Positions 1 to 14,019 of a DNA stretch of 14,469 nt are shown here, one piece after another. The DNA lies in IMG/VR virus record IMGVR_UViG_2740892028_000014; one strand, written 5' to 3'. Below the pieces are notes generated by a model. The model did no database searches. It was not told where the DNA came from and was given only the letters and a program-made list of their open reading frames with translations. Made by a program: the position numbers and the translations under genes. How positions within the stretch are numbered: position 1 is the stretch's first letter; each line of letters starts with the position of its first letter. This DNA is from a virus (lineage: Duplodnaviria > Heunggongvirae > Uroviricota > Caudoviricetes).

Positions 1-204
1 ATGAACACCGACACTATTCCTACAAAAGGCTATATCAGACGCTTCCGCCTGGCTGAATTGCTGGGCGTTAGTGTATCCACCATCGACCGTAAAGTAAGAA
101 ACGGTTCACTACCACGTCCGGTAAAGCTGGGAGAAAAAATAACTGCGTTTGATGCGGTTGAGATTCACAACTGGCTGGCAGAACGCCGCGGGAAGGTGGC
201 CTGA
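1..204 (+). CDS. alpA: AlpA-family winged-HTH regulator (excisionase-like transcriptional activator)
   Basis: ORF track 1..204, 67 aa. Sequence pattern LAELLGVSVSTIDRKVRNGSLPRPVKLG...EIHNWL matches the AlpA/Xis-type HTH as I remember it. Stop TGA overlaps the next ATG (TGATG). Family call is from memory, not a search. Confidence 0.7.
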   Translation: MNTDTIPTKGYIRRFRLAELLGVSVSTIDRKVRNGSLPRPVKLGEKITAFDAVEIHNWLAERRGKVA

Positions 205-635
205 TGGAAAAGAAAAACCGCCCATTACAGGCGGCTAATTCAGATATTCGCGTATCTGATGTTACGCCCCTTACAAAATCCCTTCAAGAACCAAAGCGCA
301 CACCGAAAAAGCATCGTGCCAGAGTCTATATGCTGCGTACTGGTATAGAGGGATGGACAGAAAATGACATTCTTCGCTACTGCCGTCTGTCTTCTGGTCG
401 TAACTATGCAACAGAGTTAGAACGCCAGCTTGGAATCACTCTGGAGCGTATCGACGAAAAGAATCCTGATGGTATCGGAACACACCTTCGCTACCGTTTC
501 TCCTGCCGCGGTGATGTTCTGAAAGTGATCACTCATATTAACCATCTTGCGAACATAAATGATCACAACGGACTTTCTCAGCAGGAAATTGCCGACATTC
601 TGAAACTCTACCCGGACGCGTTTAACGCCGCCTAA
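204..635 (+). CDS. hypothetical protein, 143 aa
   Basis: ORF track 204..635; start overlaps the alpA stop (translational coupling). Codon usage looks ordinary. No recognisable motif. Confidence 0.6.
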   Translation: MEKKNRPLQAANSDIRVSDVTPLTKSLQEPKRTPKKHRARVYMLRTGIEGWTENDILRYCRLSSGRNYATELERQLGITLERIDEKNPDGIGTHLRYRFSCRGDVLKVITHINHLANINDHNGLSQQEIADILKLYPDAFNAA

Positions 636-647
636 CGGAGACTGAAA

Positions 648-1481
648 ATGAACATCGAAAAAAGCAGATTAATTTCTGAGGCCGCCCCTCATCTGAACGC
701 CTCTCTGGGCACAATTAACGGTAATGAATTTGCCGCAATTGTCCCGGTTATTCCTGGTCATATCGGTGGGCGTGAAACCAATATTGTTAGCGCAAAAGCG
801 TTGCACAAAGCGTTGGGCGTGGGAAAAGACTTCTCTACATGGATCACTGATCGCATCTCTGAATATGACTTCACCATTGGGCACGATTACTCAGTCCATA
901 AAACAATTTCCCCAAATTTGGGGAAAAGCCCGAATGGCGCGGCTTACAGCAAGATTAAGCAGTCTGGCAGACCCGGCAAAGACTATCTGTTAAGTGTCGG
1001 AATGGCGAAAGAACTGGCAATGATCGAACGCAATGATCAGGGTCGCGCTATCCGTCGTTATTTCATCCAGTGCGAGGAAGAATTACAGCGTAGCGTGCCT
1101 GAAATCGCCGCCCGCTATCGTCGCCAGCTAAAAGCCCGTATCAGTGCCGCAAACAACTTTAAGCCAATGTGCGATGCGCTGAATATGGCCCGTGCCGAGA
1201 CGGGGAAAACGACGCAGCAACACCACTACACAAACGAGAGCAATATGATTTCTCGTATCGTTCTTGGTGGGCTAACTGCTAAGCAGTGGGCGCGGATAAA
1301 TGGCTATTCTGGCGAACCTCGCGACCATATGAACGCAGAACAGCTTGAGCACCTCTCATATCTCGAAAGCACCAATATCACGTTAATTGATATGGGCATG
1401 GAATATGAGCAGCGCAAAGGAGAACTCACCCGCCTGTCGCAACGCTGGCTCGCCAAGCGTCTGGAGGCGGTCCATGTTTAA
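648..1481 (+). CDS. phage antirepressor-like regulatory protein (Rha/Ant/Bro-N-type N-terminal domain), 277 aa
   Basis: ORF track 648..1481. GGAG about 9 nt upstream of the ATG. N-terminal region (IVSAKALHKALGVGKDFSTWITDRI...DYLLSVGMAKELAMIERNDQGRAIRRYFIQ) resembles phage antirepressor DNA-binding domains. Domain family recalled, not searched. Confidence 0.6.
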   Translation: MNIEKSRLISEAAPHLNASLGTINGNEFAAIVPVIPGHIGGRETNIVSAKALHKALGVGKDFSTWITDRISEYDFTIGHDYSVHKTISPNLGKSPNGAAYSKIKQSGRPGKDYLLSVGMAKELAMIERNDQGRAIRRYFIQCEEELQRSVPEIAARYRRQLKARISAANNFKPMCDALNMARAETGKTTQQHHYTNESNMISRIVLGGLTAKQWARINGYSGEPRDHMNAEQLEHLSYLESTNITLIDMGMEYEQRKGELTRLSQRWLAKRLEAVHV

Positions 1482-1656
1482 GCCGACAGGAACACCACAA
1501 CCTCAAAAACGCTACAAAGATGCCCACGGAGCACTCGTTACTGTCGAAAGCGTGTCTCACAACCGAGTGACGTTTTATCGCGACGGGTATCAATCGCCAT
1601 GCGTACAACCGCTGGCGCGCTTCATGAAGGAGTTCGCGGAGGTTAACAAATGCTAA
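1474..1656 (+). CDS. small hypothetical protein, 60 aa (internal ATG of track ORF 1387..1656)
   Basis: ATG at 1474 overlaps the stop of the preceding gene (ATGTTTAA); its own stop overlaps the next ATG at 1650. Fits the coupled-gene pattern of the operon. Confidence 0.45.
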   Translation: MFKPTGTPQPQKRYKDAHGALVTVESVSHNRVTFYRDGYQSPCVQPLARFMKEFAEVNKC

Positions 1657-2717
1657 CCGTCCAGAAGAAGATATTTTCACTGGCTGGTATGTCGCCAAAA
1701 TCCAGCAATATGACGGCAAAATCAGTTATTAATACAGCAGATACAAGCAAAGTTTATCATTTGCTGGTGGTCGGAACGGATGCCTTAACCATACCAGAAA
1801 TCTCGGGCGATGATATTAGCATTGAGAAGGTCAGCGGCTGCGCCAGAAAATTTCTGGTCGTAGATGATGTCTTCCGCTCGTGTAGTGACTCCACAAAAAC
1901 ATTCGTCCACGCGCGTGACGTTAACGAAATGAGCGCGATGTACTGTGCTTCTGGTTCTTCCAATAGTGAGTTTTCGGAGTCCATAAAAAAGAGCTTGCCG
2001 TTATGCGGCAACACGGTTTATGGTTATAAGGCACCTCATAAAACGGGTGCCGGGATTGGCGTCCTGAAAATTCTGAAGGCGACATATGACGCGCCGAGCG
2101 TCTTTTTTTATGTCGTAGGTCTGACTCACCCATTTTTTGGGCGTTGGTGTATAATCCAGCGCCTTTGTCAATCAATGGTGGCTCAGGCGGGGGCTTCTTC
2201 GGAAGCGCCGGTATCCTTCAGAGCCGGTTACGCCAACCCTGTCTGGGCTACCACCAGCGAAATTGGCGTTTCCGGTGGTAGCGTAACCTGCTATCTGAAG
2301 GAGGCTGCCACATGCTGGCTACTACCCCTACCCAAAAACCGCAATTTATCTGGATTATCGCCGCAGTTCGCCGCGATTGCCCGACAATTACCGCCAAAAT
2401 TCATCATATTGCTGCCGAGTCTGAACGCGATGCTCGCCGTTCTCTGGTGCGCGATCACGTCTGCTTTTTTGCTGGTCGTATCCGCATGGAGGTGGCACAT
2501 GATTAAAACCTACGATGTGCATATGGATCCCCTCGAACGCACAAGCCAGATCATCACACTGACAGAAGTGATTAACGACATTCTGGTGAGCAACTCTCCC
2601 TCACGAGACGAAAGACTGAAGGCGTTACTCGCGATATTGGATCTCGCCGTTCGTGACGTTCATTTCCTGCTGGAAGGTGGACAAATGCCATGCAAAACGG
2701 GGGCAACCAATGAATAA
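1650..2717 (+). CDS. hypothetical protein; open frame of 355 aa, probably composite (see 2312..2506 and 2499..2717)
   Basis: ORF track 1650..2717. The 5' two thirds have ordinary codon usage. Between about 2300 and 2500 this frame is rich in rare codons (CTA, TTA, ATA, AGG) while another frame looks coding. True 3' end is uncertain. Confidence 0.35.
2312..2506 (+). CDS. small hypothetical protein, 64 aa (alternative frame inside 1650..2717)
   Basis: ORF track 2312..2506. Strong Shine-Dalgarno AAGGAGG 7 nt upstream of the ATG. Good codon usage. Stop overlaps the ATG at 2499 (ATGATTAA). Confidence 0.45.
   Translation: MLATTPTQKPQFIWIIAAVRRDCPTITAKIHHIAAESERDARRSLVRDHVCFFAGRIRMEVAHD
2499..2717 (+). 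CDS. small hypothetical protein, 72 aa ([17 protein letters not shown]...)
   Basis: ATG at 2499 preceded by GGAGGTGG. Same frame as the 3' end of track ORF 1650..2717. Stop at 2715-2717 overlaps the next ATG. Confidence 0.45.
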   Translation: MIKTYDVHMDPLERTSQIITLTEVINDILVSNSPSRDERLKALLAILDLAVRDVHFLLEGGQMPCKTGATNE

Positions 2718-2904
2718 CTCAATTAATACCCCTCGCCTTACGTCCGCACTTCAATTAATCGAGCAAGCAGCGGCTGTCCTGGTTGCTGTCAGTCTTTCGG
2801 CTGAAGAAATGGACGCTGCTGATGTCGTGGATGCGATTAAAGCGTGCTCATCTTTGGTTAACGATGCCCGTGCAGAGCTGGTAATTCTTGGTGGTGAAAA
2901 ATGA
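2710..2904 (+). CDS. small hypothetical protein, 64 aa ([10 protein letters not shown]...)
   Basis: Internal ATG of track ORF 2653..2904, chosen because it overlaps the upstream stop (ATGAATAA). Stop overlaps the next start (ATGA). Confidence 0.5.
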   Translation: MNNSINTPRLTSALQLIEQAAAVLVAVSLSAEEMDAADVVDAIKACSSLVNDARAELVILGGEK

Positions 2905-3164
2905 ATATCAACTTAATTTATCGTCATCCGTGTGAGCTGGAAATTGAATCATTGCTGGGGCGCGAAGAGCCATATCCAGACACATTCACTCCCGCAGATT
3001 GCGCGACTGAACGGCTTACCAGAGCGCGCACAGGTCTGGTTCATGTGATGAATGAGATTATTCCCTCGGTGGGAGGGGAACAGGCGACAGTAATCAATAG
3101 CTGGCTACAAAAAGTTACCTCCCTGATAGATATCAGTTTAATCGATGTGGAGAGTGCGAAATGA
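2901..3164 (+). CDS. small hypothetical protein, 87 aa
   Basis: ORF track 2901..3164. ATGA overlaps at both ends; GGTGGTGA upstream of the start. Confidence 0.55.
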   Translation: MNINLIYRHPCELEIESLLGREEPYPDTFTPADCATERLTRARTGLVHVMNEIIPSVGGEQATVINSWLQKVTSLIDISLIDVESAK

Positions 3165-3382
3165 CCAACATCCAGCTCATTGAAGCGCAATGTCGCATCG
3201 AACAGGTTCAGACTGTTTTAGGGTTCTGGCTTGAAGGGGCCAGCCCCAGCAACAGAGACAAGTTAATGATTGGCGCGGTTATGTCACTGCTCAATGGCGT
3301 ACCAGAAGCTATTCAGGAAGCAGACGAATTGTTGGGCAAATATGAGTTACAGAATCATTCAGGCGAGGCGAAACATGAATAA
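3161..3382 (+). CDS. small hypothetical protein, 73 aa
   Basis: ORF track 3161..3382. ATGA overlap with the upstream gene; stop overlaps the ATG at 3375. Confidence 0.55.
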   Translation: MTNIQLIEAQCRIEQVQTVLGFWLEGASPSNRDKLMIGAVMSLLNGVPEAIQEADELLGKYELQNHSGEAKHE

Positions 3383-3977
3383 TTTCTTAACCTTCCATGC
3401 AGAAGCAACGCCTGACGGCGTAAACATCATGCACCGCAGCAACGATGGCATGACAGAACGCGTTGAGACCGTCTCATATATTGATGCCGTAAATCGTCTG
3501 GATGCCGGGGATTATGACGATAAACCAGATGAAGGCATGTTTATACATCTCGCTATTGCCAGTGGCGGCAACCAGGGATATTTCGATTACACATCACAGC
3601 ATCACGTGATTATGTGGCGCTGGCTGATAGCAACAGCATTCATCAATGAAATGAGAAAGGAAAACGGCACCGTCAGCATTATTGATGACAGTGGCAATCA
3701 TTCCGTGGTTTCTGTTTATTCCAATGGCATCGTCGCCATGCCGCTGTATCCAGTAGCAGAGCGCCTCGCTATGGCAAACAACATTGAGGGCGCAATGATC
3801 GAGAAATATGGTGTTGATGTCGGAACAAAGAATGCCATCATTTTTTACAGCAACATGTTCGATGTCGAACAGGGAACACTCACTTCGTTTGGGCGAGAAG
3901 TGCTTGCCGATCTTCACAACAGCTTTATTGCCGAACTAAACGAAAACGGCATCCCAGAAGCACCAGTGACGCACTAA
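3375..3977 (+). CDS. hypothetical protein, 200 aa (MNNFLTFHAEATPDG...)
   Basis: Same frame as track ORF 3270..3977, but the ATG at 3375 overlaps the upstream stop (ATGAATAA) and has AGGCGAGG upstream. The 3270 start would overlap the previous gene by about 110 nt. Confidence 0.6.
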   Translation: MNNFLTFHAEATPDGVNIMHRSNDGMTERVETVSYIDAVNRLDAGDYDDKPDEGMFIHLAIASGGNQGYFDYTSQHHVIMWRWLIATAFINEMRKENGTVSIIDDSGNHSVVSVYSNGIVAMPLYPVAERLAMANNIEGAMIEKYGVDVGTKNAIIFYSNMFDVEQGTLTSFGREVLADLHNSFIAELNENGIPEAPVTH

Positions 3978-6517: not shown

Positions 6518-6748
6518 ATGATGAGCACACCATTTTACAAAGTGCGCCAGTTAGCTTCTTCCTCTGGCTGGCAGCTACGGTTTGAGGGGCGTTCAGACTG
6601 GCTACCCATTGCGGCATGGGCGAATGTTGAAATGTGTATTGACGGCGATACCGTTGAAATCATTATTCCCTGCGTGGCAAGTCGGGACGGCTGTATAGAG
6701 CCAACAGATATGGCAGCAGAAATCAGAGAGGTAAAACATGAACAATAA
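6518..6748 (+). CDS. hypothetical protein, 76 aa
   Basis: ORF track 6518..6748. GAGGAAA upstream of the ATG. 11-nt overlap with the next gene. Confidence 0.5.
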   Translation: MMSTPFYKVRQLASSSGWQLRFEGRSDWLPIAAWANVEMCIDGDTVEIIIPCVASRDGCIEPTDMAAEIREVKHEQ

Positions 6749-7475
6749 CTATTGCATACCGCAGGGAATGACCAGAACGGAGCGCGAAGAATTAAAAAGT
6801 TTCGCTACACAGTGCGGGAATGCTGGCGACATCCAAAGTCTGGAACGCACTTTAATTATGATTGCGCACTGGATGCGCCAGGGGCAAAGGGTTTCATTTA
6901 CTGAATATGCCAGCCAGTGGACAGAGGCACAGCGCGAACGGAGCGACGGTAATCACTCAACACCCGAAATGGCGAAGCAATGGCCTTTCAGTGGTAAAAG
7001 CTGTATCAGTCCCGGTGGTTCAGATTATTACCCTGCAGGTGTGGGAGATAAGCCATGTTGTGACGAGACTGAAATCCGCCACGCAGTGACAGTAATTACC
7101 GCTGAATACCCACAATTTAACCTTGACGGACTGGCGCTCCACAACCGGAATGCGGACTGGGAAAACCCGCTTGATAACCCGTCATTTATCGTATCGGCGA
7201 AAAGCTGCCTGAGATGGATCAGAGACAACGGGATGAGTAATGCCCAGATTGAGAGCTTCCCGCAGGATAACCCCACATCTGACATGTTGAAGCATGAAGT
7301 GGAGCGATATAACCAGATAAACCACCAGCACAGTGATCACCCGCACTATATCCCCAACGGAGCATTTATTGCGGCGATGGTGGCAAGCGGCTACAAGGTT
7401 AAGCCAGCGGGAAGAATGAACGCATTTTTCAATATTTCAAAAAAGGGATTATGTGCTGCTATGGGTAAAAATTAA
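6738..7475 (+). CDS. hypothetical protein, 245 aa, Cys/His-containing (CCDE, HQHSDHPHY)
   Basis: ORF track 6738..7475. AGAGAGG upstream of the ATG. No recognisable catalytic motif. Confidence 0.55.
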   Translation: MNNNYCIPQGMTRTEREELKSFATQCGNAGDIQSLERTLIMIAHWMRQGQRVSFTEYASQWTEAQRERSDGNHSTPEMAKQWPFSGKSCISPGGSDYYPAGVGDKPCCDETEIRHAVTVITAEYPQFNLDGLALHNRNADWENPLDNPSFIVSAKSCLRWIRDNGMSNAQIESFPQDNPTSDMLKHEVERYNQINHQHSDHPHYIPNGAFIAAMVASGYKVKPAGRMNAFFNISKKGLCAAMGKN

Positions 7476-7480
7476 ATAAA

Positions 7481-7585
7481 TGGTACAGGTCTGTACAGGT
7501 GGGGAGAGGTCATTTTTACCCACCTGTACCACCTGCAGGCCTCGCCACACAAGGGTTTGTGACATGGTGGTACAGGTGGTACAGC
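7481..7585. repeat. iteron array II: GGTACAGGT/ACCTGTACC units related to array I
   Basis: GGTACAGGT at 7482-7490, CTGTACAGGTGG at 7491-7502, inverted CACCTGTACCACCTG at 7521-7535, GGTGGTACAGGTGGTACAG at 7567-7584. Same core as 6371-6476. Confidence 0.6.
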
Positions 7586-7738
7586 AAAAACAGCGATTTT
7601 CTTTATAAGGTATGTTTTGCTCATCTGGCAGACGGAGGTATTCGCTGCGGTTTGGCACATAGCCCAGAACAGCAAAGAGTTTTACGAGACTTTTGTAAAA
7701 TCCAGTGTACAAGGGGCGTGACGTTTTTGAAGGTGAGC

Positions 7739-7757
7739 ACTACGAAATTTTCGTAGT
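7739..7757. promoter_or_regulatory. 19-bp palindrome ACTACGAAA-T-TTTCGTAGT, operator-like
   Basis: Perfect 9-bp inverted arms with a 1-nt spacer inside the untranslated region upstream of the 8079 operon. Binding protein unknown. Confidence 0.3.
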
Positions 7758-7950
7758 TCAAAAAATAGCCTCTGAGATGTTGTTATGCCTGTTCAGCAAA
7801 CCATCCGCATAGATGATCGCGAATCAAATTACCAATGGAGCAAGAAGCAAGGGCAGAACTGAAAAGCGCCTGCCGTGAAGAGTAATGCGACACCATAAAT
7901 ATAGTTTTTAGAGTCCATAAAAAACCTGTCAAAACCTGACACACAGAACG

Positions 7951-7984
7951 ATGCCACCAGCTACTGAGCGGTGGCATTTTCTTG
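7951..7984 (+). terminator. rho-independent terminator-like hairpin
   Basis: ATGCCACC (7951-7958) pairs with GGTGGCAT (7970-7977); loop of about 11 nt; followed by TTTTCTT. Loop is long for a canonical terminator. Confidence 0.45.
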
Positions 7985-8045
7985 TGCTATTCGTTTCACA
8001 TTTTGCAATGAACATGATGAATATTGCGATTTGTGAAACTATAAT
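7983..8045 (+). promoter_or_regulatory. promoter of the 8079 operon: consensus -10 TATAAT (8040-8045), poor -35, upstream TGT-N12-ACA dyad (7983-8000)
   Basis: Perfect TATAAT. The hexamer 17 bp upstream is ATGAAT. Dyad TGT GCTATTCGTTTC ACA lies about 50 bp upstream of the -10 centre. Interpretation as activator-dependent is inference. Confidence 0.4.
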
Positions 8046-8078
8046 GACTGTTGTTTTATACAGTTCTAAGGGGGCGTT

Positions 8079-8252
8079 ATGGCTATTTCAGTAAAGCCAG
8101 TATTGATAAGTGAGAAGCAAATGGAAGCGATAAAGAAAATTCAGGAGGAGCAGCGTAAAAAATCAGAGGTAGGAGTTGCGCCAACGATCCACGAAATTGC
8201 TCGGGGATTAATGGATAAGGCGCTGGCTTACACTTTAACTGGACGTGGGTAA
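8079..8252 (+). CDS. small protein, 57 aa, possible ribbon-helix-helix-like regulator
   Basis: Below the track length cut-off; read directly: ATG at 8079, AAGGGGG 5-11 nt upstream, stop TAA 8250-8252. Protein MAISVKPVLISEKQMEAIKKIQEEQRKKSEVGVAPTIHEIARGLMDKALAYTLTGRG has a strand-helix-helix layout. Fold call is inference. Confidence 0.5.
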   Translation: MAISVKPVLISEKQMEAIKKIQEEQRKKSEVGVAPTIHEIARGLMDKALAYTLTGRG

Positions 8253-8256
8253 ATCA

Positions 8257-9600
8257 ATGGCTACGTGGCAACAGGGTATTAATTCTGGTGGTTTTCTGGC
8301 TGGCATCGGTACGCAAAATGAGAATGCGCCAAAGGCAAGCGACATTAACGCAACGCTTGGTCTGATCCGCGAAAACAATGAACTGGCTCGATCAGGTGCA
8401 AATAACGTTGCTCTGACAGGTCTTCGAGGTCTGGCTGGAGTTGCTGATATTTATAAGCAGCAGCAACAGCAGGAGCGTAAAGCGGCATTCCAGAAAGGCT
8501 ATGCGGATGCTTATGCGTCCGGCGACAGAGAGAAGATGCGTAATCTGGTTACTGAATTTCCTGATGAGTTTGAGGAAGTCAGAAAGGGAATGGGGTATAT
8601 CGATGATGCCCAGAGGGATGATTTTGGCAATCTGGCGCTTAAAGCACAGGTGGCCTCATCGCTGGGCGCTGGCGCATTTGGTCGATTCATGATGGACAAT
8701 GAGAAGGAAATGCGCCGCCTTGGCGTTCCGCCAGAAGTCATCGCTGACATGCATTTTAACGACCCGCAGGGCTTCCAGCACTTTGCAGGTAATCTGGCAC
8801 TATTTTCTCTCGGTCATGAGAAGTACTTCGATATCAAAGATCGAATGGAAGGTCGTCGACTTGAGCAAGGGCGACTGGATGAAAGTATGCGTCAGGCTGA
8901 CATGGAGAACGCGAGAGGATGGGCAAATATCCAGAACGCTCAACTAGACAGGGCTCAGCGAGCACAAATTCACTCAGATGAGATGGGATTGAAGCTAATG
9001 GAGCTGGGGCAAAAAGGTAAGCCGTCAGCAGACTTAATTAAGGGATTAAATTCTGATATTACCAATTTTGGCAAAAATTATAACTCTGTCAGAGCGGCAG
9101 CAAACTCTCTGCAAGCCCTTAGCAAGGTAAATACTGGCGCTGCCCAACTTGGGATTATCTTCAACTACATGAAATCTCTTGACCCGCAGTCAGTCGTTCG
9201 TGAAGGCGAACAGGTTCAGGTAATGCGGTCTGATGGCATATGGGGACAAATCAAAGGATACATAGACCAGCTTAATGCTGGAAACGGCCTGTCGCAGGAG
9301 GCAAAGGATAACATTGTTAACGCCGCAAAAATCAACGCCAATGCTATGGGGCAGCAGTTTAACCAGCAGGTTGACGAATATCTCGATACATATGGAGAAA
9401 CCATTCCTCAGGGGCTAAGAAAAAGCCTTGAAAGAAGGAAAGCGAAGCTATTTGACGATGTTTCCGGGCAGCCTACATCACAGGCTGGCACTGGGCAGGC
9501 AAAAGCGGCAACCGGAGGAATATCAGAAGGCGCAACGGCAACCAACCCTAAAACTGGTCAGAAAATTATTTACAGGAACGGAAAATGGCAGCAAATGTAA
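8257..9600 (+). CDS. hypothetical Ala/Gln/Gly-rich protein, about 447 aa; no enzymatic motif seen
   Basis: ORF track 8245..9600 uses a GTG; the first ATG is at 8257 (MATWQQ...). The upstream small-gene stop overlaps this start region. Poly-Q run and predicted helical, low-complexity sequence. Last 16 nt overlap the next gene. Confidence 0.7.
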   Translation: MATWQQGINSGGFLAGIGTQNENAPKASDINATLGLIRENNELARSGANNVALTGLRGLAGVADIYKQQQQQERKAAFQKGYADAYASGDREKMRNLVTEFPDEFEEVRKGMGYIDDAQRDDFGNLALKAQVASSLGAGAFGRFMMDNEKEMRRLGVPPEVIADMHFNDPQGFQHFAGNLALFSLGHEKYFDIKDRMEGRRLEQGRLDESMRQADMENARGWANIQNAQLDRAQRAQIHSDEMGLKLMELGQKGKPSADLIKGLNSDITNFGKNYNSVRAAANSLQALSKVNTGAAQLGIIFNYMKSLDPQSVVREGEQVQVMRSDGIWGQIKGYIDQLNAGNGLSQEAKDNIVNAAKINANAMGQQFNQQVDEYLDTYGETIPQGLRKSLERRKAKLFDDVSGQPTSQAGTGQAKAATGGISEGATATNPKTGQKIIYRNGKWQQM

Positions 9601-11702
9601 TCTTACCGGAAGGTTTTGTGCTCGATGAACAACCTGATAACTCACAGTTTCCTGATAGTTCACAGCTTCCTGATGGTTTTGTGCTTGATGCCCAACCAGA
9701 ACAGCAGCAATCACCTTTGGTTTCACCATGGGAAAATTCCAGACAGGAAAATGTTGTTAATAATGCTAACGGTTTCGACCGTTTTATGTATGGCGTTCTC
9801 AGTGGATTGATGGATGTTGGTAAAGGTGTTGGCCTGTTTCAGGATATGACACCAGAAGAGCAAGCCGCAATTCAGTCTCTACAGCAGAAGTTAGCGGCAA
9901 AACCATCAACCGCACAAGATGTTGGTGAGTTTGTTGGACAAGCAGCGCCATTTGTTAGTGGTGGTGGGATTATTTCTCAGGTTCCGAAAGGTGCGGCAAG
10001 GCTGGCTGCCGCCGCAGGGCTTGGTGCTGGAGAAGGGGCTATTGTAGCCAATGGAACAAATAGCGATGTTGCTTCCGGCGCTGCTATTGGCGCTGTGGCT
10101 GGCCCTGTAGCCGAACTTGCTGGCCCTGCAATTAATAAAATAGCTGGGAAATTAACCAAGAAGAATGTTTCTTCGATTCCAGATATTGAGGGGATTACTC
10201 CTGCCGAAGAGAAAATTCGTAAGTTATCTGCACAAGGCAACCCAAATCTTGCCTCTTCGCTTGAAGGGCTAGATCTAAAACCTCAGAAAGAAATTGTTGA
10301 GGCTGCAAATAGGCTTCATGTTGATTCAGTTCTTCCTTCTCATTTTTCAGGAAATGAGCAATACCAAGCTGTAGAGCAAGCCCTAAAGTCACGGACAGGA
10401 TCAGCGTTAAAAGCTCAAGAAGATAAAGCAATAAGCGAATTAGCCTCTAGTGCTGGCAAGATAATCGATGATGTTGCTGGTGCGCCAGATGCGTTAGCTA
10501 TGAGCGAAAAATATATTTATCAGATAAATAGTAGAATGGAAGCACTAAAAAACCGTAGTGATCAGTTATATAAACGTGTTGATTCCGCTCTATCACCAAG
10601 AACAAAAGTCGAAGCAAATAACACAAGCACTATGCTGGAAAAAATCGCTGATGATTTAGGTGGGTGGGATAATCTTGACCCAATAGAAAAGCGAGTTTTT
10701 ACAGCAATAAACCCCGGCCCAGATAGCATCCTAACGTATGCAAATTTAAACAGGCAAAGGCGTTTAGTTGGTGATGCCCTAAATAAAAAGCAGGGGCCAT
10801 ACAAAGATGCTGATAAAGAAGCGCTATCAAGACTATATGGAGCTTTAGCTGAAGACCAAAAATCTGTCTTATCCAATACTGGATACTTGCGAGATTTCGA
10901 AGTCGCACAACGCCTTGTAGCTATGAGAAAAAACTTAGAAAGGCAAATGGTAAATCTTCGCGGGAAAACACTTAATGGGGATATAGCGTATAAAGTAACG
11001 AATTCTCTTCAATCTATGGCAAAAGGTGATGCGAGAGGGTTTCGTGAGATTATGCAAAATACTCCATCAAGAACATTGCGAAGGGAGCTAGTAGGAACAG
11101 CATTAAGAGATATGCTTTCCTCTGGGAAGCGCGGGGCCGACTTTAATCCATCTGGCTTTGCAGATTGGTGGCAAAACTTGCAACACAGTGGACAGCTAAA
11201 GACTTTGGCTGAACATTTGCCAAAAGAAACAATGAGCGGACTATATGATGTATACAAAGTTGCCAGAGCAATAAAAAATGCTAAAGCGCATGAAATATCT
11301 ACTGGTAAGCTGAATGAGTTTGTAAACAGATTTAATCGGGTAACAGCTCCATACGAACTAGCAGCAAAACACATTCAAAAAATAGGCACGATGATAGGCG
11401 CTCATTTTGGATCGCTTGGAGCCATTGCTGGGGCTGATATTGGAGCAAGATTGGCGAGTAAAGCTCGATTAGCTGGTGGAGCAGGGGCGGCTGATGCTGC
11501 GGATAAATTAATTGCCTCGCCAGCCTTCCAGAGCGCAGTAAAAAATCTACACGGAAAAGCGCCTGGGCACATTGTTGATTCACGTATCAGGCGCTCCCCT
11601 CAATGGAAGAGTTTTTTTAACTCTCTTCCTGAACAGGAAAAACGGACCATCGCCCGACTGGGCATCATTACTTGGCTATCTAATGATCCAGATAATGACT
11701 AG
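9585..11702 (+). CDS. hypothetical 705-aa protein with N-terminal tandem repeat and Gly/Ala-rich zipper-like segments
   Basis: ORF track 9585..11702. Tandem peptide repeat LPEGFVLDEQP / LPDGFVLDAQP, mirrored in the DNA at about 9600-9700. Gly/Ala stretches such as GAARLAAAAGLGAGEGAIV and GSLGAIAGADIGARLA. No Walker or nuclease motifs seen. Confidence 0.75.
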   Translation: MAANVILPEGFVLDEQPDNSQFPDSSQLPDGFVLDAQPEQQQSPLVSPWENSRQENVVNNANGFDRFMYGVLSGLMDVGKGVGLFQDMTPEEQAAIQSLQQKLAAKPSTAQDVGEFVGQAAPFVSGGGIISQVPKGAARLAAAAGLGAGEGAIVANGTNSDVASGAAIGAVAGPVAELAGPAINKIAGKLTKKNVSSIPDIEGITPAEEKIRKLSAQGNPNLASSLEGLDLKPQKEIVEAANRLHVDSVLPSHFSGNEQYQAVEQALKSRTGSALKAQEDKAISELASSAGKIIDDVAGAPDALAMSEKYIYQINSRMEALKNRSDQLYKRVDSALSPRTKVEANNTSTMLEKIADDLGGWDNLDPIEKRVFTAINPGPDSILTYANLNRQRRLVGDALNKKQGPYKDADKEALSRLYGALAEDQKSVLSNTGYLRDFEVAQRLVAMRKNLERQMVNLRGKTLNGDIAYKVTNSLQSMAKGDARGFREIMQNTPSRTLRRELVGTALRDMLSSGKRGADFNPSGFADWWQNLQHSGQLKTLAEHLPKETMSGLYDVYKVARAIKNAKAHEISTGKLNEFVNRFNRVTAPYELAAKHIQKIGTMIGAHFGSLGAIAGADIGARLASKARLAGGAGAADAADKLIASPAFQSAVKNLHGKAPGHIVDSRIRRSPQWKSFFNSLPEQEKRTIARLGIITWLSNDPDND

Positions 11703-11705
11703 TGA

Positions 11706-11721
11706 ATGGCCACGGATGGCC
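11706..11721. terminator. short GC hairpin between convergent genes (weak terminator candidate)
   Basis: ATGGCC ACGG ATGGCC: the self-complementary GGCC arms can pair; T-rich tract follows on the + strand. Sits exactly between the stops of 9585..11702 and 11722..12078. Stem is only 4 bp. Confidence 0.25.
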
Positions 11722-12078
11722 TCAATCTTTATTCTTTGAAATAGAGTCATTGATCTTTTCGAAACACCAATGAAATCCACAAAAGAGAGCTACACCAATA
11801 TAACAATACAAAACTATCAACCACCTTTCAGTGTCCGAAGGGTAAAAAACATCAATTACATAAGCAACACCAATTGGTATTAATGCTAGTAATAACATCG
11901 ACATAGGACGTACAAACTTCTGAACTATATCAATTTTATAGAACCACAAGGCGGTATGTTTAATGATATAAGTAAAGATGGCTGCGCCAATAATGGCAAA
12001 AAACACCATCGATAAGGTCGGGTATAACTTTGCGACAATTAAACCCAACAAAATAATTATAACTGCCTGCCCCCTCAC
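11722..12078 (-). CDS. small integral membrane protein, 118 aa, about 3 predicted TM helices
   Basis: ORF track 11722..12078 (-). GTG start with AAGGGGG 5 nt upstream on the minus strand. Hydrophobic segments IIILLGLIVAKL, VFFAIIGAAIFTYII, LLLALIPIGVAYVI. AT-rich codon usage. Confidence 0.55.
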   Translation of the reverse strand: MRGQAVIIILLGLIVAKLYPTLSMVFFAIIGAAIFTYIIKHTALWFYKIDIVQKFVRPMSMLLLALIPIGVAYVIDVFYPSDTERWLIVLYCYIGVALFCGFHWCFEKINDSISKNKD

Positions 12079-12191
12079 ACCAACCCCCTTTAGCGTTGTT
12101 TAGAATGGCAATCATCATATATCCAAGACATGGCATTTGGTACATAGCTTGGGTCGGGATTTCAAATCCGATCCCCGTTGATGGGGCCGTT

Positions 12192-12573
12192 ACAGTACGC
12201 GCATATCCGCTTTATGTGAAACAGGAAGATTTTTCTGATATCACTGCCACAGCAAAACACCAATTTCGTGACCAGTACGCGCGCGAGGGGTATCAGTTGC
12301 AAAATTTTTTGCAACTGCGTCCGACCAGTACGCGCACGATGGAGGGGAGTGCCATAAAACTGTTCTCTACATAAGACAGAGTGGTGGTGATGTGTTGATT
12401 ATCGGCGTATATGCGCACAGGACGCGCTATGACGATGTTTTATGCGGGTACACCAATCACATGTATCTGATGTGATAAATCGTGTTACATGACATATCAT
12501 GTTGTGCTGGTGGTTATCACGACTTTCTGAATCTGGCCTTTGCCTGATATTTTGCGACAAGTACGCGCGCGTA
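12192..12573. repeat. family of short repeats with an alternating CG core (consensus roughly ACCAGTACGCGCGCG)
   Basis: Copies at 12192-12203, 12271-12287, 12324-12339 and 12557-12573, with a fifth at 14232-14247. Longer shared context CAATTTC..GA.CA.TACGCGCGCG at 12261-12287 and 14219-14246. Confidence 0.5.
12294..12317. promoter_or_regulatory. 24-bp palindrome CAGTTGCAAAA-TT-TTTTGCAACTG
   Basis: Perfect 11-bp inverted arms with a 2-bp spacer, between two copies of the CG-core repeat. Confidence 0.4.
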
Positions 12574-12599
12574 GCATCGACAGCATACACATTGGATAT

Positions 12600-12821
12600 T
12601 CATTTTGTGACCAATGCGATAAGTAGCGGGATAAGAATTGATAAAATCAACAGGCCGATGATCCACTTTTGATTTTCACTGGCCTTATCTCTATTTTCAT
12701 CAATCTTATCAATAATTCGACGCTCCAAGCCGTGCATATCACCGCGAATGGCAATCATCTCATTGCGAACATCCGAGAAGTGGTTGGCTTGATGTTCAAT
12801 GTGTGGCGTTCTGCCTTTCAT
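12600..12821 (-). CDS. small membrane protein, 73 aa: soluble N-terminal helix plus single C-terminal TM (XhlA/holin-like architecture)
   Basis: ORF track 12600..12821 (-). ATG start with GTGAGGA upstream on the minus strand. C-terminal WIIGLLILSILIPLLIALVTK is a clear TM segment. Family resemblance recalled, not searched. Confidence 0.55.
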   Translation of the reverse strand: MKGRTPHIEHQANHFSDVRNEMIAIRGDMHGLERRIIDKIDENRDKASENQKWIIGLLILSILIPLLIALVTK

Positions 12822-12900
12822 GCCTGATCCTCACCTATCGTCACCACCTGCTGGTGTATAAAGGTATTGGCCCAAGCAGCTTTCCAATGGGCACTCATGT

Positions 12901-13356
12901 TTATACGCTGACCTTACAATCAATCACCGCTTTTAACTTTTCAGCATTGCTTCCCTGGCGCTTCCACGCGCTGTAAATGTCTTTATCCCATGCTTTACCA
13001 GCTTTTGTTTGATAGCCTGCTTCATTGAGCCGTTCCGCTATCACACGCCCATTATCAAATCCCTGTCGGATGGTATCGGCAATGATCTTTATAACTGCCG
13101 TTTCGTTATATGGCTTTGGTGGGATGTTCGGCTTTCCGGCAATAAGCGACGCAGCGGCTTTTTCCATGCGCTCCACCAGCCCAAGCATTCGTGAATCAAT
13201 AGACTTTTCCGGCTGTCCCAGCTTCATGCGAATCGCATCAACAAGCCAGGAGGTTTTATCCCCTCCAGAAGCGAGAACAGACCGATTAAACTCATCCTGC
13301 AATTCAGATGGGATGCGGAACGCGACCAGATTAGATTTGCTCATTGCAAAGACCAT
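12901..13356 (-). CDS. DNA-binding protein, 151 aa: N-terminal ribbon-helix-helix-like segment plus C-terminal recombinase-type HTH-like segment
   Basis: ORF track 12901..13356 (-). N-terminus SKSNLVAFRIPSELQDEFNRSVLASGGDKTSWLVDAIRMKLG looks RHH-like. C-terminus IAERLNEAGYQTKAGKAWDKDIYSAWKRQ resembles the DNA-binding segment of serine-recombinase accessory domains. Both are motif-level calls. Confidence 0.55.
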   Translation of the reverse strand: MVFAMSKSNLVAFRIPSELQDEFNRSVLASGGDKTSWLVDAIRMKLGQPEKSIDSRMLGLVERMEKAAASLIAGKPNIPPKPYNETAVIKIIADTIRQGFDNGRVIAERLNEAGYQTKAGKAWDKDIYSAWKRQGSNAEKLKAVIDCKVSV

Positions 13357-13374
13357 ATCAGTGAGTAATATCCA

Positions 13375-13404
13375 TACAGTATACCACTGTATAACACTGT
13401 TATA
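13375..13404. promoter_or_regulatory. overlapping operator-like inverted repeats: TACAGT-N5-ACTGTA and TATAAC-N3-GTTATA
   Basis: Read directly at 13375-13391 and 13390-13404, about 20-50 bp upstream of the 12901..13356 start on the minus strand. Confidence 0.35.
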
Positions 13405-13458
13405 CGCTCAAATATCAGCCAGAAAATAACGGGCCAATCACAAAGCTATCGCTGTGTT

Positions 13459-13579
13459 GTTGGTTCAGAGCTGGGCTGTGTTGGTTCAAAATGAGTTGAT
13501 GTTGGTTCAATATTTCAGAAAAAACACAATAAAAACAACGATCTTTACAAATTGAACCAACTGAACCAACTGAACCAAC
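13459..13579. repeat. iteron array: three GTTGGTTCA copies phased 21 bp apart plus a perfect tandem triple of the inverse TGAACCAAC
   Basis: GTTGGTTCA at 13459-13467, 13480-13488, 13501-13509. TGAACCAAC x3 contiguous at 13553-13579. Lies in the divergent region between 12901..13356 (-) and 13616..13903 (+). Confidence 0.65.
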
Positions 13580-13615
13580 ACCTTTTTGCTTATCTATATA
13601 ATCTGAGAGGCAGAA

Positions 13616-13903
13616 ATGATAAGGGACAGGAAAGCTGAAGAGCTGGAGTCAAAAGGGCTATACCGGAGAGCTGCCGCACGATGGGCAGAAGTCATGATGC
13701 TGGCAGATGGCGATAAAGAACGTGAACATGCAGCAAACAGACGCTCTGAATGTATCCGTAAGGCGGCACGCCCACCAGCAACTACAGACAGATTCGGAGA
13801 TTTAAGACAGGCAGTTAAGCGGACTCATTCGGCTCTTGGTATGGATGAGGAAGCGAGAGGGTACTTCAGGCGTTATCGCGATAAAGATTGCCAGAGACAG
13901 TAA
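13616..13903 (+). CDS. PerC-family transcriptional regulator-like protein, 95 aa
   Basis: ORF track 13616..13903. N-terminus AEELESKGLYRRAAARWAEVM matches the PerC-type signature as I recall it. TATAAT at 13597-13602 just upstream; GAGAGG before the ATG. Confidence 0.65.
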   Translation: MIRDRKAEELESKGLYRRAAARWAEVMMLADGDKEREHAANRRSECIRKAARPPATTDRFGDLRQAVKRTHSALGMDEEARGYFRRYRDKDCQRQ

Positions 13904-14019
13904 TGCTCTCTCTGTTTTGGCAAATTACCCCTCACTTTGAAGGGATCGGAGCTATAAAAATGGTTTTAGGTACATTCCTCAAATTGAGGATTGTGGGAAA
14001 ACCAATGAGTTAGGCTTTT

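Follow-up and report, generated by a model that had tools for sequence, protein, structure and literature searches.

The three-gene operon at positions 7951–11702 of a 14,469-nt stretch of DNA (the window, by which we mean the whole stretch analysed) is a swappable P22-type DNA-ejection protein set belonging to a known kind of E. coli phage satellite. Two large genes, of the gp20 and gp16 families, follow a small gene that heads a conserved slot. The features are listed here by position and strand.

7676..8227, plus strand: conserved left flank of the slot; spans terminator, operator and promoter and runs ~49 codons into the small ORF
7950..7986, plus strand: rho-independent terminator-like hairpin and T-run, closing the primase-side transcription unit
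7993..8039, no strand: operator-like inverted repeat, GTTTCACATTTTGCAAT / ATTGCGATTTGTGAAAC, adjoining the -10
8040..8045, plus strand: -10 hexamer TATAAT with a poor -35, read from the sequence
8048..8063, no strand: candidate SOS operator, a LexA-box-like CTGT-N8-ACAG located between -10 and SD
8079..8252, plus strand: conserved 57-aa small protein heading the slot, a putative regulator; SD AAGGGGG
8257..9600, plus strand: gp20-type ejection protein (periplasmic conduit), 447 aa; Pfam PF16928, phrog_917
9585..11702, plus strand: gp16-position ejection protein, 705 aa; phrog_6704, phrog_770
11722..12078, minus strand: convergent 118-aa membrane protein with four TM segments, part of the swapped cassette, in the position of P22 sieA
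12151..12580, no strand: conserved right flank of the slot, nearly invariant over its ~430 nt and without an annotated gene

Homology of the encoded proteins

By its sequence, the 447-aa protein is a clear homologue of P22 gp20. It matched the Pfam family PF16928 (Inj_translocase) over residues 16–223 (E 3.5e-73; score 246.4 bits, cutoff 29.7) and phrog_917 (3e-133), and it was 74.5% identical to gp20 of the P22-like phage Kapi1 (Kapi1_057), collinear over 447/447 residues, and 53% identical to P22 gp20 over residues 1–212. The 705-aa protein matched phrog_6704 over residues 1–701 (1.1e-173), a family that Kapi1_058 matches at 6e-230, and phrog_770 over residues 113–654 (4.8e-51), which P22 gp16 matches at 2.3e-266. 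It was 41% identical to Kapi1_058 over its full length and 59% identical to the gene-16-position protein of Sf101 over residues 153–701; BLASTP gave no direct match to P22 gp16 at E ≤ 1e-3, and no Pfam family, including Phage_P22_gp16, was found at E ≤ 0.01. Judged on these alignments, the protein is of a Kapi1/Sf101-like gp16 sequence type that is distinct from P22 gp16.

The initial annotation had described the operon as three coupled genes, and the reading frames agree. The 447-aa ORF starts 4 nt past the stop of the 57-aa ORF (an alternative GTG at 8245 would overlap that ORF), and the gp20-type gene lies directly upstream of the gene-16 homologue and is coupled to it by the 16-nt overlap that Kapi1 also has; an SD-like AGGAACGGA precedes the 705-aa ORF. 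The large proteins had also been called low-complexity, rich in Ala, Gly and Gln, and devoid of any catalytic signature. They are indeed Ala/Gly-rich (A+G+Q 30.9% in the 447-aa and 26.8% in the 705-aa protein) and Cys is absent from both, but they are not truly low-complexity; searches of Pfam, NCBIfam and PADLOC found no enzyme domain, but strong family matches exist for both. The suggestion that they are virion-associated proteins rather than enzymes, acting at the envelope and not on nucleic acid, was borne out by their homology to the gp20 and gp16 ejection proteins. Neither has a signal peptide. The 705-aa protein has Gly/Ala-rich hydrophobic 19-mers at residues 67–85, 137–180 and 603–621 (Kyte-Doolittle 1.1–1.4), which are not classic TM helices.

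A ribbon-helix-helix-like layout had been ascribed to the 57-aa protein. Its AlphaFold2 monomer (pLDDT 78, pTM 0.31), with an extended segment at residues 1–11 and helices at 12–28 and 37–53, is compatible with this putative fold, the strand of which would form only in a dimer; but sequence, profile and fold searches lent no support, finding no similarity to known RHH proteins (Arc/MetJ/CopG). The small ORF is satellite-specific and occurs in no sequenced phage.

The host satellite and its exchangeable slot

The host element is an EcCIMP1-type phage satellite with no ordinary prophage structural module. The PICI EcCIMP1 resides in E. coli MP1 and is mobilised by the P22-like phage vB_EcoP_Kapi1 (Pick, Stadel, Raivio, ISME J 2025, PMC11773190); its excision and transduction occur only with this helper (PMC11773190). 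In the window, the operon is accompanied by genes for AlpA, AntA, Ash and primase. Pfam searches, PHROG profile searches and annotation turned up no gene for capsid, portal, terminase, tail or lysis, either in the window or across the full island, which in strain ACN001 is flanked by yicC and dinD (tRNA-Thr is the insertion site of other islands). The element has integrase, AlpA and primase in this order and no capsid, terminase, tail or lysis genes, as expected of PICIs and EcCIMP1-like satellites, and an int-AlpA-AntA-Ash-primase island that matches the window at 97% identity across 12.5 kb also lacks capsid, terminase, tail and lysis genes. Nucleotide homology to the validated EcCIMP1 runs at 87–94% identity across the backbone and both slot flanks (93.8% for window positions 194–3975, 93.5% and 94.7% for the flanks).

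These results uphold the initial annotation in taking the element for a satellite and the operon for a separately regulated unit, with its own promoter and insulated by a terminator. The module is not undescribed, as had been claimed: the gp20 and gp16 protein families are known, the EcCIMP1 island family is published, and its 'DNA transfer protein'-like genes have already been remarked on (PMC11773190). Homology to phage ejection proteins within an ordinary prophage module had been named as the outcome that would speak against a satellite module; the homology is clear, but the setting is one without capsid, portal, terminase, tail and lysis genes.

The window and EcCIMP1 share their gene order (AlpA, a 143-aa protein, AntA, DUF4222, Ash, primase, the small ORF, ejection genes and a PerC/ANR-like gene), as well as the promoter and operator, whereas the C-terminal domains of their primases differ (DUF5906 in the window, DUF927 in EcCIMP1) and so do the cassettes. 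The EcCIMP1 cassette consists of gp14 (DUF2824), gp7, gp20, a 906-aa gp16 that includes a lytic transglycosylase, and a 232-aa lipoprotein; that of the window is limited to gp20 and the 705-aa gp16-type protein, which lacks the transglycosylase, plus the convergent four-TM protein. The two gp20 proteins are 25% identical, and the gp16-position proteins gave no BLASTP match (E ≤ 1e-3).

The flanks of the slot are conserved although the cassettes differ. The left flank is 93–94% identical to that of EcCIMP1 and of islands with other cassettes, and in strain D72 it is 100% identical next to a different cassette. The right flank, in which RefSeq annotates no CDS, is near-invariant in five islands with different cassettes. 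The left flank was found in 521 of 5426 complete E. coli genomes, and the slot as a whole is present in about 9% of them (455–521 genomes). The slot contains either gp20+gp16 or gp14+gp7+gp20+gp16; junction counts among these slot-bearing genomes gave 217 with gp20-first and 258 with gp14-first cassettes.

The control region in the left flank bears out the initial annotation, which had reported a terminator-like hairpin and a promoter with a perfect -10 and a poor -35. The hairpin at 7950–7978 folds at a dG of -24.6 kcal/mol (z = -4.7; 0 of 200 shuffled sequences were as stable), is followed by TTTTCTTGT and is also called by a terminator scan; in loci of Erwinia, Pantoea, Chimaeribacter, Leclercia and Serratia this position is taken by hairpins of other sequence, each with a T-run after it. 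The inverted repeat has 17-nt arms and a 13-nt gap, and its core positions are invariant in 15 loci of 11 genera. Its exact motif TTTCA-N6-GCAAT occurs nowhere else in the window and is absent from the helper phage Kapi1. TATAAT recurs at this position in 27 of 31 related loci, which span about 11 genera, far above chance; a consensus scan missed the promoter because the -35, ATGAAT 17 nt upstream, matches TTGACA at 3 of 6 positions.

The CTGT-N8-ACAG sequence is the sole such site in the 14.5-kb window (0.17 expected) and matches TACTG(TA)5CAGTA at 14 of 20 positions. It has canonical spacing in Escherichia, Serratia (loci L009-11), Erwinia persicina, two Pantoea loci (L024 and L032) and Lonsdalea; in a form shortened by one base, CTG-N9-CAG, it occurs in Klebsiella, Raoultella, Rahnella, Chimaeribacter, Serratia silvae, an Erwinia MAG (L027) and two other Pantoea loci (L029/L030), and the box is missing from the Leclercia and Pectobacterium loci. 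Canonical spacing is not conserved family-wide, and because many genera have the shorter version we treat the box only as a candidate.

Maintenance of the cassette and its envelope protein

The cassette shares protein families, gene order, overlapping coupled genes and mosaic evolution with P22-like phages (Lederbergvirus: P22, Kapi1, Sf101), as well as a small envelope-protein gene after gene 16. In those phages, however, the ejection genes lie within a long late operon, after the needle gene, 14 and 7, under Q antitermination, whereas those of the window stand by themselves in a satellite, preceded by a terminator, operator, promoter and small ORF of their own. Kapi1 is closely matched (dN 0.04–0.05) by the gp20 N-terminus (residues 1–71) and by the first ~174 residues of the 705-aa protein, and the C-terminal three quarters of the gp16-type protein are an allele differing from that of Kapi1.

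Capture by recombination of a P22-like prophage late-operon fragment, carried passively since as an inert relic, would fit two of our observations: ~89% DNA identity to Kapi1 extends over the gp20 gene and 520 nt into the gp16-type gene, and phage-derived DNA begins at most 10 nt from the gp20 start codon. By contrast, dN/dS values for gp20 (0.12 against another island, 0.08–0.09 against the segments shared with Kapi1) and for the 705-aa gene (0.17) indicate that the ejection genes are under purifying selection. The cassette ORFs are intact in 84 genomes, and essentially every E. coli family member has an ejection cassette, served by a dedicated and conserved promoter and operator. The C-terminal part of the gp16-type protein is at least 99% identical across 87 E. 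coli genomes, and no sequenced phage comes nearer to this allele than 63% amino-acid identity. There are also analogous cassettes in other genera: in satellites of other Enterobacterales, the same small ORF and operator precede an orphan tape-measure gene, a trio of large internal-virion genes or baseplate-hub-like genes, all of them envelope-penetration or DNA-conduit parts. The relic reading is thus already disfavoured, and we regard it as very improbable.

The 118-aa gene falls in the variable segment between the conserved flanks and ends 20 nt past the 705-aa gene. In P22, sieA is likewise convergent, 23 nt after gene 16, and the 118-aa protein, with four hydrophobic segments, resembles SieA in position and as a predicted multi-pass inner-membrane protein. 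It has no sequence similarity to SieA (BLASTP E 1.8), lacks the motif FxRYPxEAxxFNK (PMC10883804) and has no match among phages; it is a positional analogue of SieA only. Every cassette type has a small envelope protein at this spot, a different one each.

This constant pairing would suit a role in interference or defence, in which the satellite's gp20 and gp16 become mixed with the corresponding proteins of a helper or superinfecting P22-like phage and damage its particles or entry conduit, or act with the adjacent envelope protein in superinfection exclusion. Mismatched Sf6/P22 combinations of gp16 and gp20 do yield non-infectious particles (Leavitt et al., PMC10883804, PMC8402733), and EcCIMP1 adds to superinfection immunity against Kapi1, with no known defence system found in it (PMC11773190); PADLOC found none here either. 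However, EcCIMP1 leaves the Kapi1 titres of induced lysogens unaffected (PMC11773190), it is difficult to see how proteins without a signal peptide would work on the periplasmic face of an uninfected cell, a LexA-type operator would silence them in uninduced cells, and exclusion is more simply attributed to the lipoprotein or membrane protein than to ejection proteins. We consider this role unlikely.

Proposed role in DNA delivery

On balance, we lean towards the view that the operon is an ejection-protein cassette with which an EcCIMP1-type satellite (PICI) exploits P22-like podoviruses, bringing its own matched delivery pair to helper-built particles. The satellite probably loads its own ejection proteins into helper particles, thereby controlling the entry of its own DNA into the next cell. 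Upon helper induction the operon promoter would fire, with derepression perhaps through the LexA-like box and a satellite factor perhaps acting at the inverted repeat. The gp20 and gp16 made would be recruited by the helper scaffold into helper-built procapsids, as are foreign ejection proteins engineered into P22, which assemble into virions and function (Leavitt et al., PMC10883804, PMC8402733). At the next infection, ejected gp20 would form a periplasmic tube and gp16 an inner-membrane channel through which the packaged DNA enters, so that the satellite's own matched pair would set the entry step. The same studies found that gp16 and gp20 need to be a matched pair whereas gp7 is interchangeable, that procapsid binding is through the N-terminal part of gp20, and that SieA-escape mutations lie in the C-terminal regions of gp16 and gp20 (Leavitt et al., PMC10883804, PMC8402733). 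The minimal cassette of the window keeps exactly the two proteins that must match and omits gp7. The EcCIMP1 proteins share only 26% (gp20) and 24% (gp16) identity with their counterparts in Kapi1, the helper proven for that satellite; EcCIMP1 therefore brings a different pair and not a copy.

The likely benefit, and the least certain part of this proposal, would be access to cells in which SieA-like exclusion stops helper-type ejection proteins, or an altered recipient range. Such a benefit is not obvious, because the satellite's ejection proteins would enter helper-genome and satellite-genome capsids alike; moreover, P22 and HS1 SieA excluded four of five ejection-protein types irrespective of sequence (PMC10883804), and therefore a different allele is no guarantee of escape.

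Several observations count against the delivery reading. EcCIMP1 transduction is rare, at about 5e3 particles/ml, and Kapi1-like prophages were found in just 2 of 21 EcCIMP1 strains (Pick et al., PMC11773190). At the position of sieA, Kapi1 lacks a homologue of SieA, in roughly half of the listed island-bearing genomes there is no second gp20-like locus, and in many family members the spacing of the LexA-like box departs from the canonical one.

Rpp and Cpm are packaging-module proteins of Gram-negative and Gram-positive PICIs. SaPI operon I, which is reportedly under LexA control, and other PICI packaging modules resemble the present operon as separately promoted late modules 3' of replication genes that act on helper virion production; the possible LexA operator of the window, here a prediction from sequence, would be a parallel to SaPI operon I. 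Those modules encode terS-like proteins or proteins that redirect capsid size or packaging, whereas the window's would serve post-adsorption DNA delivery. Pick et al. proposed a packaging or head-assembly role for EcCIMP1_017-019 (PMC11773190), in which the cassette would steer these helper processes to satellite DNA as Rpp, Cpm or Sid do. The operon does lie 3' of the primase, the usual place of a PICI packaging module, Raoultella and Klebsiella relatives have terS-like genes farther downstream, and ejection proteins and DNA compete for head space (Leavitt et al., PMC10883804, PMC8402733). Yet P22 head assembly and DNA packaging do not need gp20 or gp16, which act only at injection (PMC8402733, PMC10883804), Pfam and PHROG profile searches found no terminase-like or capsid-size gene in the window, and the two-gene cassette lacks a homologue of gp14, the sole member annotated as head morphogenesis. 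We find a packaging role quite improbable, and no result supports the scaffold-like action on capsid size that the initial annotation had entertained.

Like the operon under the delivery reading, capsid-forming PICIs (cf-PICIs) and P4, through Sid/Psu, provide some virion components themselves. They differ in kind: the cf-PICI genes are for capsid, portal, protease, adaptors and terminase, those of P4 for an external scaffold and decoration proteins; literature searches found no cf-PICI or P4 with ejection proteins or a tape measure.

A broader and rather doubtful extension of the delivery reading is that the EcCIMP1 lineage has a 're-keying' slot, in which the small protein, operator and promoter drive whichever delivery proteins fit the local helper, together with an envelope protein at the sieA position. 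Here gp20/gp16 would match P22-like podoviruses and a set of three internal virion proteins would match other podoviruses, with a tape measure for siphoviruses and a hub for myoviruses. Satellite-loaded particles would evade the injection-blocking exclusion of helper lysogens, and the envelope protein would keep out rivals. If true, satellite piracy would target the entry step, besides capsid size or packaging.

Operon anatomy and protein identity

We found the features described in the initial annotation, a terminator-like hairpin, a TATAAT promoter with a poor -35 element and three coupled ORFs, at their reported positions in the window. They are listed here together with further elements of the region:

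7950-7978: terminator-like hairpin
7993-8009 / 8023-8039: operator-like inverted repeat, abutting the -10 element
8040-8045: -10 element, a perfect TATAAT
8048-8063: LexA-box frame CTGT-N8-ACAG, after the -10 element
8079-8252: small ORF, 57 aa, with Shine-Dalgarno sequence (SD) AAGGGGG
8257-9600: second ORF, 447 aa, starting 4 nt past the preceding stop
9585-11702: third ORF, 705 aa, overlapping the second by 16 nt
11708-11721: downstream hairpin

The upstream hairpin (-24.6 kcal/mol, z = -4.7) is followed by TTTTCTTGT and was also listed by a terminator scan. The candidate -35 hexamer, 17 nt upstream of TATAAT, matches TTGACA at 3/6 positions; a consensus scan omits this promoter because the hexamer fails its rule, and the promoter call was based instead on cross-genus conservation. 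The downstream hairpin is weak (z -1.4), and insulation of the operon at its 3' end therefore depends mostly on the convergent gene that follows. Rfam detected no known RNA in the operon, its matches lying only at the distant positions 2031-2258, and no tRNAs were found.

The two large proteins are rich in Ala and Gly (A+G+Q 31% and 27%) and contain no Cys. They had been said to carry no catalytic signature, in agreement with our enzyme domain searches, which came back empty for both. The 447-aa protein matched Pfam PF16928 ('DNA/protein translocase of phage P22 injectosome'; 3.5e-73) and phrog_917 (3e-133). It was 74.5% identical over its full length to Kapi1_057, the gp20 of the P22-like phage vB_EcoP_Kapi1 (Kapi1) of E. 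coli; against P22 gp20, identity was 53% across the first 212 residues. The 705-aa protein matched phrog_6704 from end to end (1e-173), the same family as Kapi1_058, whose gene comes directly after the gp20 gene in Kapi1. It also matched phrog_770 (5e-51), to which P22 gp16 belongs at 2e-266. Identity was 41% with Kapi1_058 and 59% with the Sf101 gene-16-position protein over the latter's C-terminal 550 residues; BLASTP gave no direct similarity to P22 gp16. Together, these profile matches and identities mark the two as ejection proteins of the P22-like podoviruses, one being gp20 and the other the protein of the gp16 position. Sequence searches returned no relatives of known structure for either protein.

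The gp20 gene and the initial ~520 nt of the 705-aa gene share ~89% DNA identity with Kapi1, and the pair is mosaic in the same way as its phage counterparts. Between the window and the related island of E. coli ACN001, dS was 0.16 for gp20 and 0.014 for both the neighbouring 705-aa gene and the primase, and residues 72-196 of gp20 form a swapped segment compared with Kapi1. Recombination within gp20 (window 8257-9600) is frequent.

The satellite and its conserved slot

The initial annotation had weighed its satellite proposal against the prospect of ejection-protein homology inside an ordinary prophage structural module. The homology is clear, but the surroundings are not such a module. Upstream lie genes for an AlpA-type HTH protein, a 143-aa protein, AntA, an Ash-family protein, a phrog_1515 protein, a Zn-ribbon/Toprim/DUF5906 primase and two small hypothetical proteins; 3' of the operon are the convergent membrane protein gene and then a PerC/ANR-like regulator gene. 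The window is 97% identical across 12.5 kb to the ACN001 island, which begins with an integrase gene, lies between yicC and dinD, and contains no capsid, portal, terminase, tail or lysis genes. Its backbone is 87-94% identical to that of EcCIMP1, a phage-inducible chromosomal island (PICI) of E. coli MP1 that excises and circularises and is transduced only with Kapi1 as helper (PMC11773190). PADLOC detected no known defence systems among ten window proteins.

[quoted passage not shown] They also reported a contribution of EcCIMP1 to superinfection immunity, without explanation. The module had been put forward as undescribed; however, the protein families, the island family and the DNA-transfer-like genes of EcCIMP1 are already known. 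In the literature searched, we did not find these genes described as a complete or minimal P22 ejection set, nor a fixed slot with its own regulator or its universality in this lineage, nor tape-measure, internal-virion or hub counterparts in the slot.

By comparing the window with five E. coli islands, EcCIMP1 among them, we defined a slot with two flanks conserved across islands and an exchangeable segment, the cassette, between them:

7676-8227: left flank, which carries terminator, operator and promoter as well as ~49 codons from the 5' end of the small ORF
12151-12580: right flank

In strain D72, the left flank is 100% identical to that of the window and the cassette is different. Cassettes come in two kinds: one, found in the window, consists of gp20 and gp16-type genes; the other, found in EcCIMP1, consists of gp14 (DUF2824), gp7, gp20 and gp16-type genes. 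The gp16 type and the C-terminal type of gp20 co-vary. The slot is common, as the left flank is present in 521 of 5,426 complete E. coli genomes (~9%), with a small-ORF-to-gp20 junction in 217 and a small-ORF-to-gp14 junction in 258. By these counts, essentially every E. coli member of this satellite family holds an ejection-protein cassette. The exact window cassette occurs in 84 genomes, close to the 87 in which the 705-aa gene is at least 99% identical over its C-terminal part, and no sequenced phage came nearer than 63% amino-acid identity to that part of the protein, a distribution that fits an allele resident in satellites.

Both large genes are under purifying selection, with a dN/dS against ACN001 of 0.12 for gp20 (44 synonymous and 20 non-synonymous differences) and a dN/dS of 0.17 for the 705-aa gene; against Kapi1, the value in shared segments is 0.08-0.09. 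That the operon is an inert relic is contradicted by these selection data and by its distribution.

The right flank, ~430 nt, is nearly invariant among islands with different cassettes and has no annotated gene. It holds a perfect hairpin (CAGTTGCAAAA/TTTTGCAACTG) and a GACNAGTACGCGCGCG motif that recurs, with a fold z-score of just -2.4. It may serve as a cis site (pac?), encode an ncRNA or contain a short ORF that has escaped annotation.

Regulation and slot contents across genera

The small ORF, for which we found no homologue among 50,697 phage genomes, occurs in Escherichia, Serratia, Klebsiella, Raoultella, Leclercia, Erwinia, Pantoea, Lonsdalea, Rahnella, Chimaeribacter and Pectobacterium, and most of these loci have homologues of the same satellite backbone genes upstream. 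The region 5' of it is conserved across genera in the order terminator, inverted repeat, TATAAT, CTGT... element and SD; the terminator is constant in position and varies in sequence by genus. The exact operator motif has no second copy in the window and no exact copy in Kapi1. We thus rejected a site for a helper-encoded regulator, and the motif appears to point to a satellite-encoded one, for which the 57-aa protein is a candidate. A ribbon-helix-helix-like layout had been proposed for this protein; its predicted secondary structure agrees, whereas sequence, profile and fold comparisons give no support. The LexA-box frame is the single such site in 14.5 kb (0.17 expected by chance) and is kept in several genera, but because many others have an element one base shorter, SOS control of the operon is a candidate and not a conclusion.

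In other genera, what follows the small ORF is not a set of P22 proteins, and the genes there form several groups:

Erwinia, Pantoea, Chimaeribacter and Lonsdalea (satellites of the same lineage; L015, L016, L023-L025, L027, L029, L030 and L032; about 10150-14000 each): a 108-aa protein and an orphan tape-measure protein of 584-1188 aa (phrog_1107 and relatives)
Leclercia, Klebsiella and Pectobacterium (L019, L020, L021 and L031; about 10200-18000): three consecutive proteins of 565-923 aa
Raoultella and Klebsiella: a 605-aa protein, part of it similar to injection transglycosylase
Rahnella: a baseplate-hub-like protein
Serratia: gp20 and an SLT-gp16 fusion

In most tape-measure loci, the 108-aa ORF comes directly after the conserved small ORF and precedes the tape-measure gene; other tail genes are absent from these loci. 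The trio matches phrog_992/1044, phrog_3003/1145 and phrog_684, families labelled 'head protein/endolysin', 'internal virion protein' and 'virion structural protein', with an SLT domain in one protein, and resembles an ejection set from a different group of podoviruses. No capsid or terminase-large genes were present in the loci of these genera within the 20 kb examined. The slot proteins of these genera have in common that they are parts of the virion's envelope-penetration or DNA-conduit apparatus. Orphan tape-measure and hub genes under the same regulator suggest a general principle that can be tested, and the slot may account for some 'incomplete prophage' calls by annotation pipelines. 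In Serratia silvae (L028 10153-13415), the slot has only short ORFs (109, 210 and 107 aa), followed by a ShlB/FhaC-type transporter gene; this island is probably degraded or truncated.

Proposed role in DNA entry and the sieA position

Known satellites target helper gene expression, capsid size and packaging specificity; a satellite-supplied DNA-entry conduit, if true, would add a new step to this list of pirated functions. The initial annotation had raised virion-associated or scaffold-like proteins that could act on helper capsid assembly or on the cell envelope. We ruled out a scaffold or capsid-size role, as no resemblance to the scaffold, Sid or Cpm families was seen and P22 builds its heads without needing gp20 or gp16. 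This dispensability also makes a packaging role of the cassette unlikely.

P22 ejection proteins enter procapsids via scaffold through their N-terminal parts, and P22 virions also take up the ejection sets of Sf6, L, CUS-3 and HK620, which are functional there (Leavitt et al. 2021, 2024; PMC8402733, PMC10883804). In these studies gp16 and gp20 needed a common source, mismatches giving non-infectious particles, and gp7 was swappable (PMC8402733, PMC10883804). The two-gene cassette of the window is exactly this must-match pair. Its N-terminal parts are near the Kapi1 type, with the main divergence in the C-terminal three quarters of the gp16-type protein; the EcCIMP1 pair is just 26% and 24% identical to that of its proven helper, Kapi1. 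The best-supported explanation is that the satellite pair would be loaded into particles built by the helper and would form the entry conduit at the following infection, giving the satellite control of the DNA-delivery step. It is also possible that the satellite proteins act in interference or exclusion, but this reading is disfavoured because Kapi1 titres are unaffected by EcCIMP1.

A plausible benefit of loading the satellite pair would be escape from SieA-like exclusion, or a changed recipient range. SieA, a prophage inner-membrane protein, blocks injection, and escape mutations lie in the C-terminal regions of gp16 and gp20 (PMC8402733, PMC10883804). We infer this benefit and do not conclude it. 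SieA excluded four of five ejection-protein types whatever their sequence (PMC8402733, PMC10883804), and Kapi1 has no SieA homologue.

Each cassette type closes with a different small envelope protein where P22 has sieA, just after gene 16:

Window and ACN001: four-TM protein
L003 and D72: protein with a signal peptide
L005: three-TM protein
Serratia: single-TM protein
EcCIMP1: 232-aa lipoprotein, on the same strand as the operon

None of the envelope proteins compared resembles SieA. They are the most economical candidates for EcCIMP1 superinfection immunity, with the putative 232-aa lipoprotein as the candidate source in EcCIMP1 itself. The slot offers a concrete candidate for both points left open in the EcCIMP1 paper, the role of the genes 3' of the primase and the cause of superinfection immunity. 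The 232-aa protein (L006 11749-12447, minus strand, after the gp16 gene) begins MIKNLLLILSLSLLAGC, with a lipoprotein-like signal and lipobox.

We ruled out that the convergent membrane protein of the window is SieA, as sequence similarity and motif were both absent. It had no matches in 50,697 phages and gave sub-threshold scores to NCBIfam CBO0543 (23.7 bits, cutoff 35) and Pfam Bax1-I (19.1, cutoff 34.1). Compared with the 131-aa gene of ACN001 (MIAILNKAKGRVGV...), the window gene (11722-12145, minus strand) has a 2-nt deletion near 12081 that shifts the first 13 codons out of frame and leaves a 118-aa ORF starting at GTG; it may be N-terminally truncated or inactivated as a result.

Several further features of the window lie outside the operon. 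Two hypothetical genes (76 and 245 aa; 6518-7475) adjoin the primase, are missing from EcCIMP1-type and Ec-050 islands, and had no PADLOC or Pfam matches. Their position corresponds to the pri-adjacent accessory region of PICIs, the site of Tai defence genes (He et al. 2024; PMC11364771). Just 3' of the primase-side genes, GTACAGGTGG-type repeats, some in each orientation, are clustered at 7481-7584 (for example CCACCTGTACCACC / GGTGGTACAGGTGG, 100% complementary); they are iteron-like and could be the satellite replication origin. Rfam matches above the gathering score to isrK (2031-2108, plus strand; 67.8 bits) and C4 antisense RNA (2171-2258, plus strand; 79.9 bits) lie within the 'Ash family' ORF (1650-2717) and suggest a P1/P4-type antisense-RNA immunity region; the EcCIMP1 annotation has an Icd-like gene near the corresponding region. 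The PerC-like gene (13616-13903, plus strand) matched NCBIfam ANR (AraC negative regulator) at 26.1 bits, under the cutoff of 32, in agreement with the report that its EcCIMP1 homologue represses, rather than activates, LEE (Pick et al., PMC11773190).
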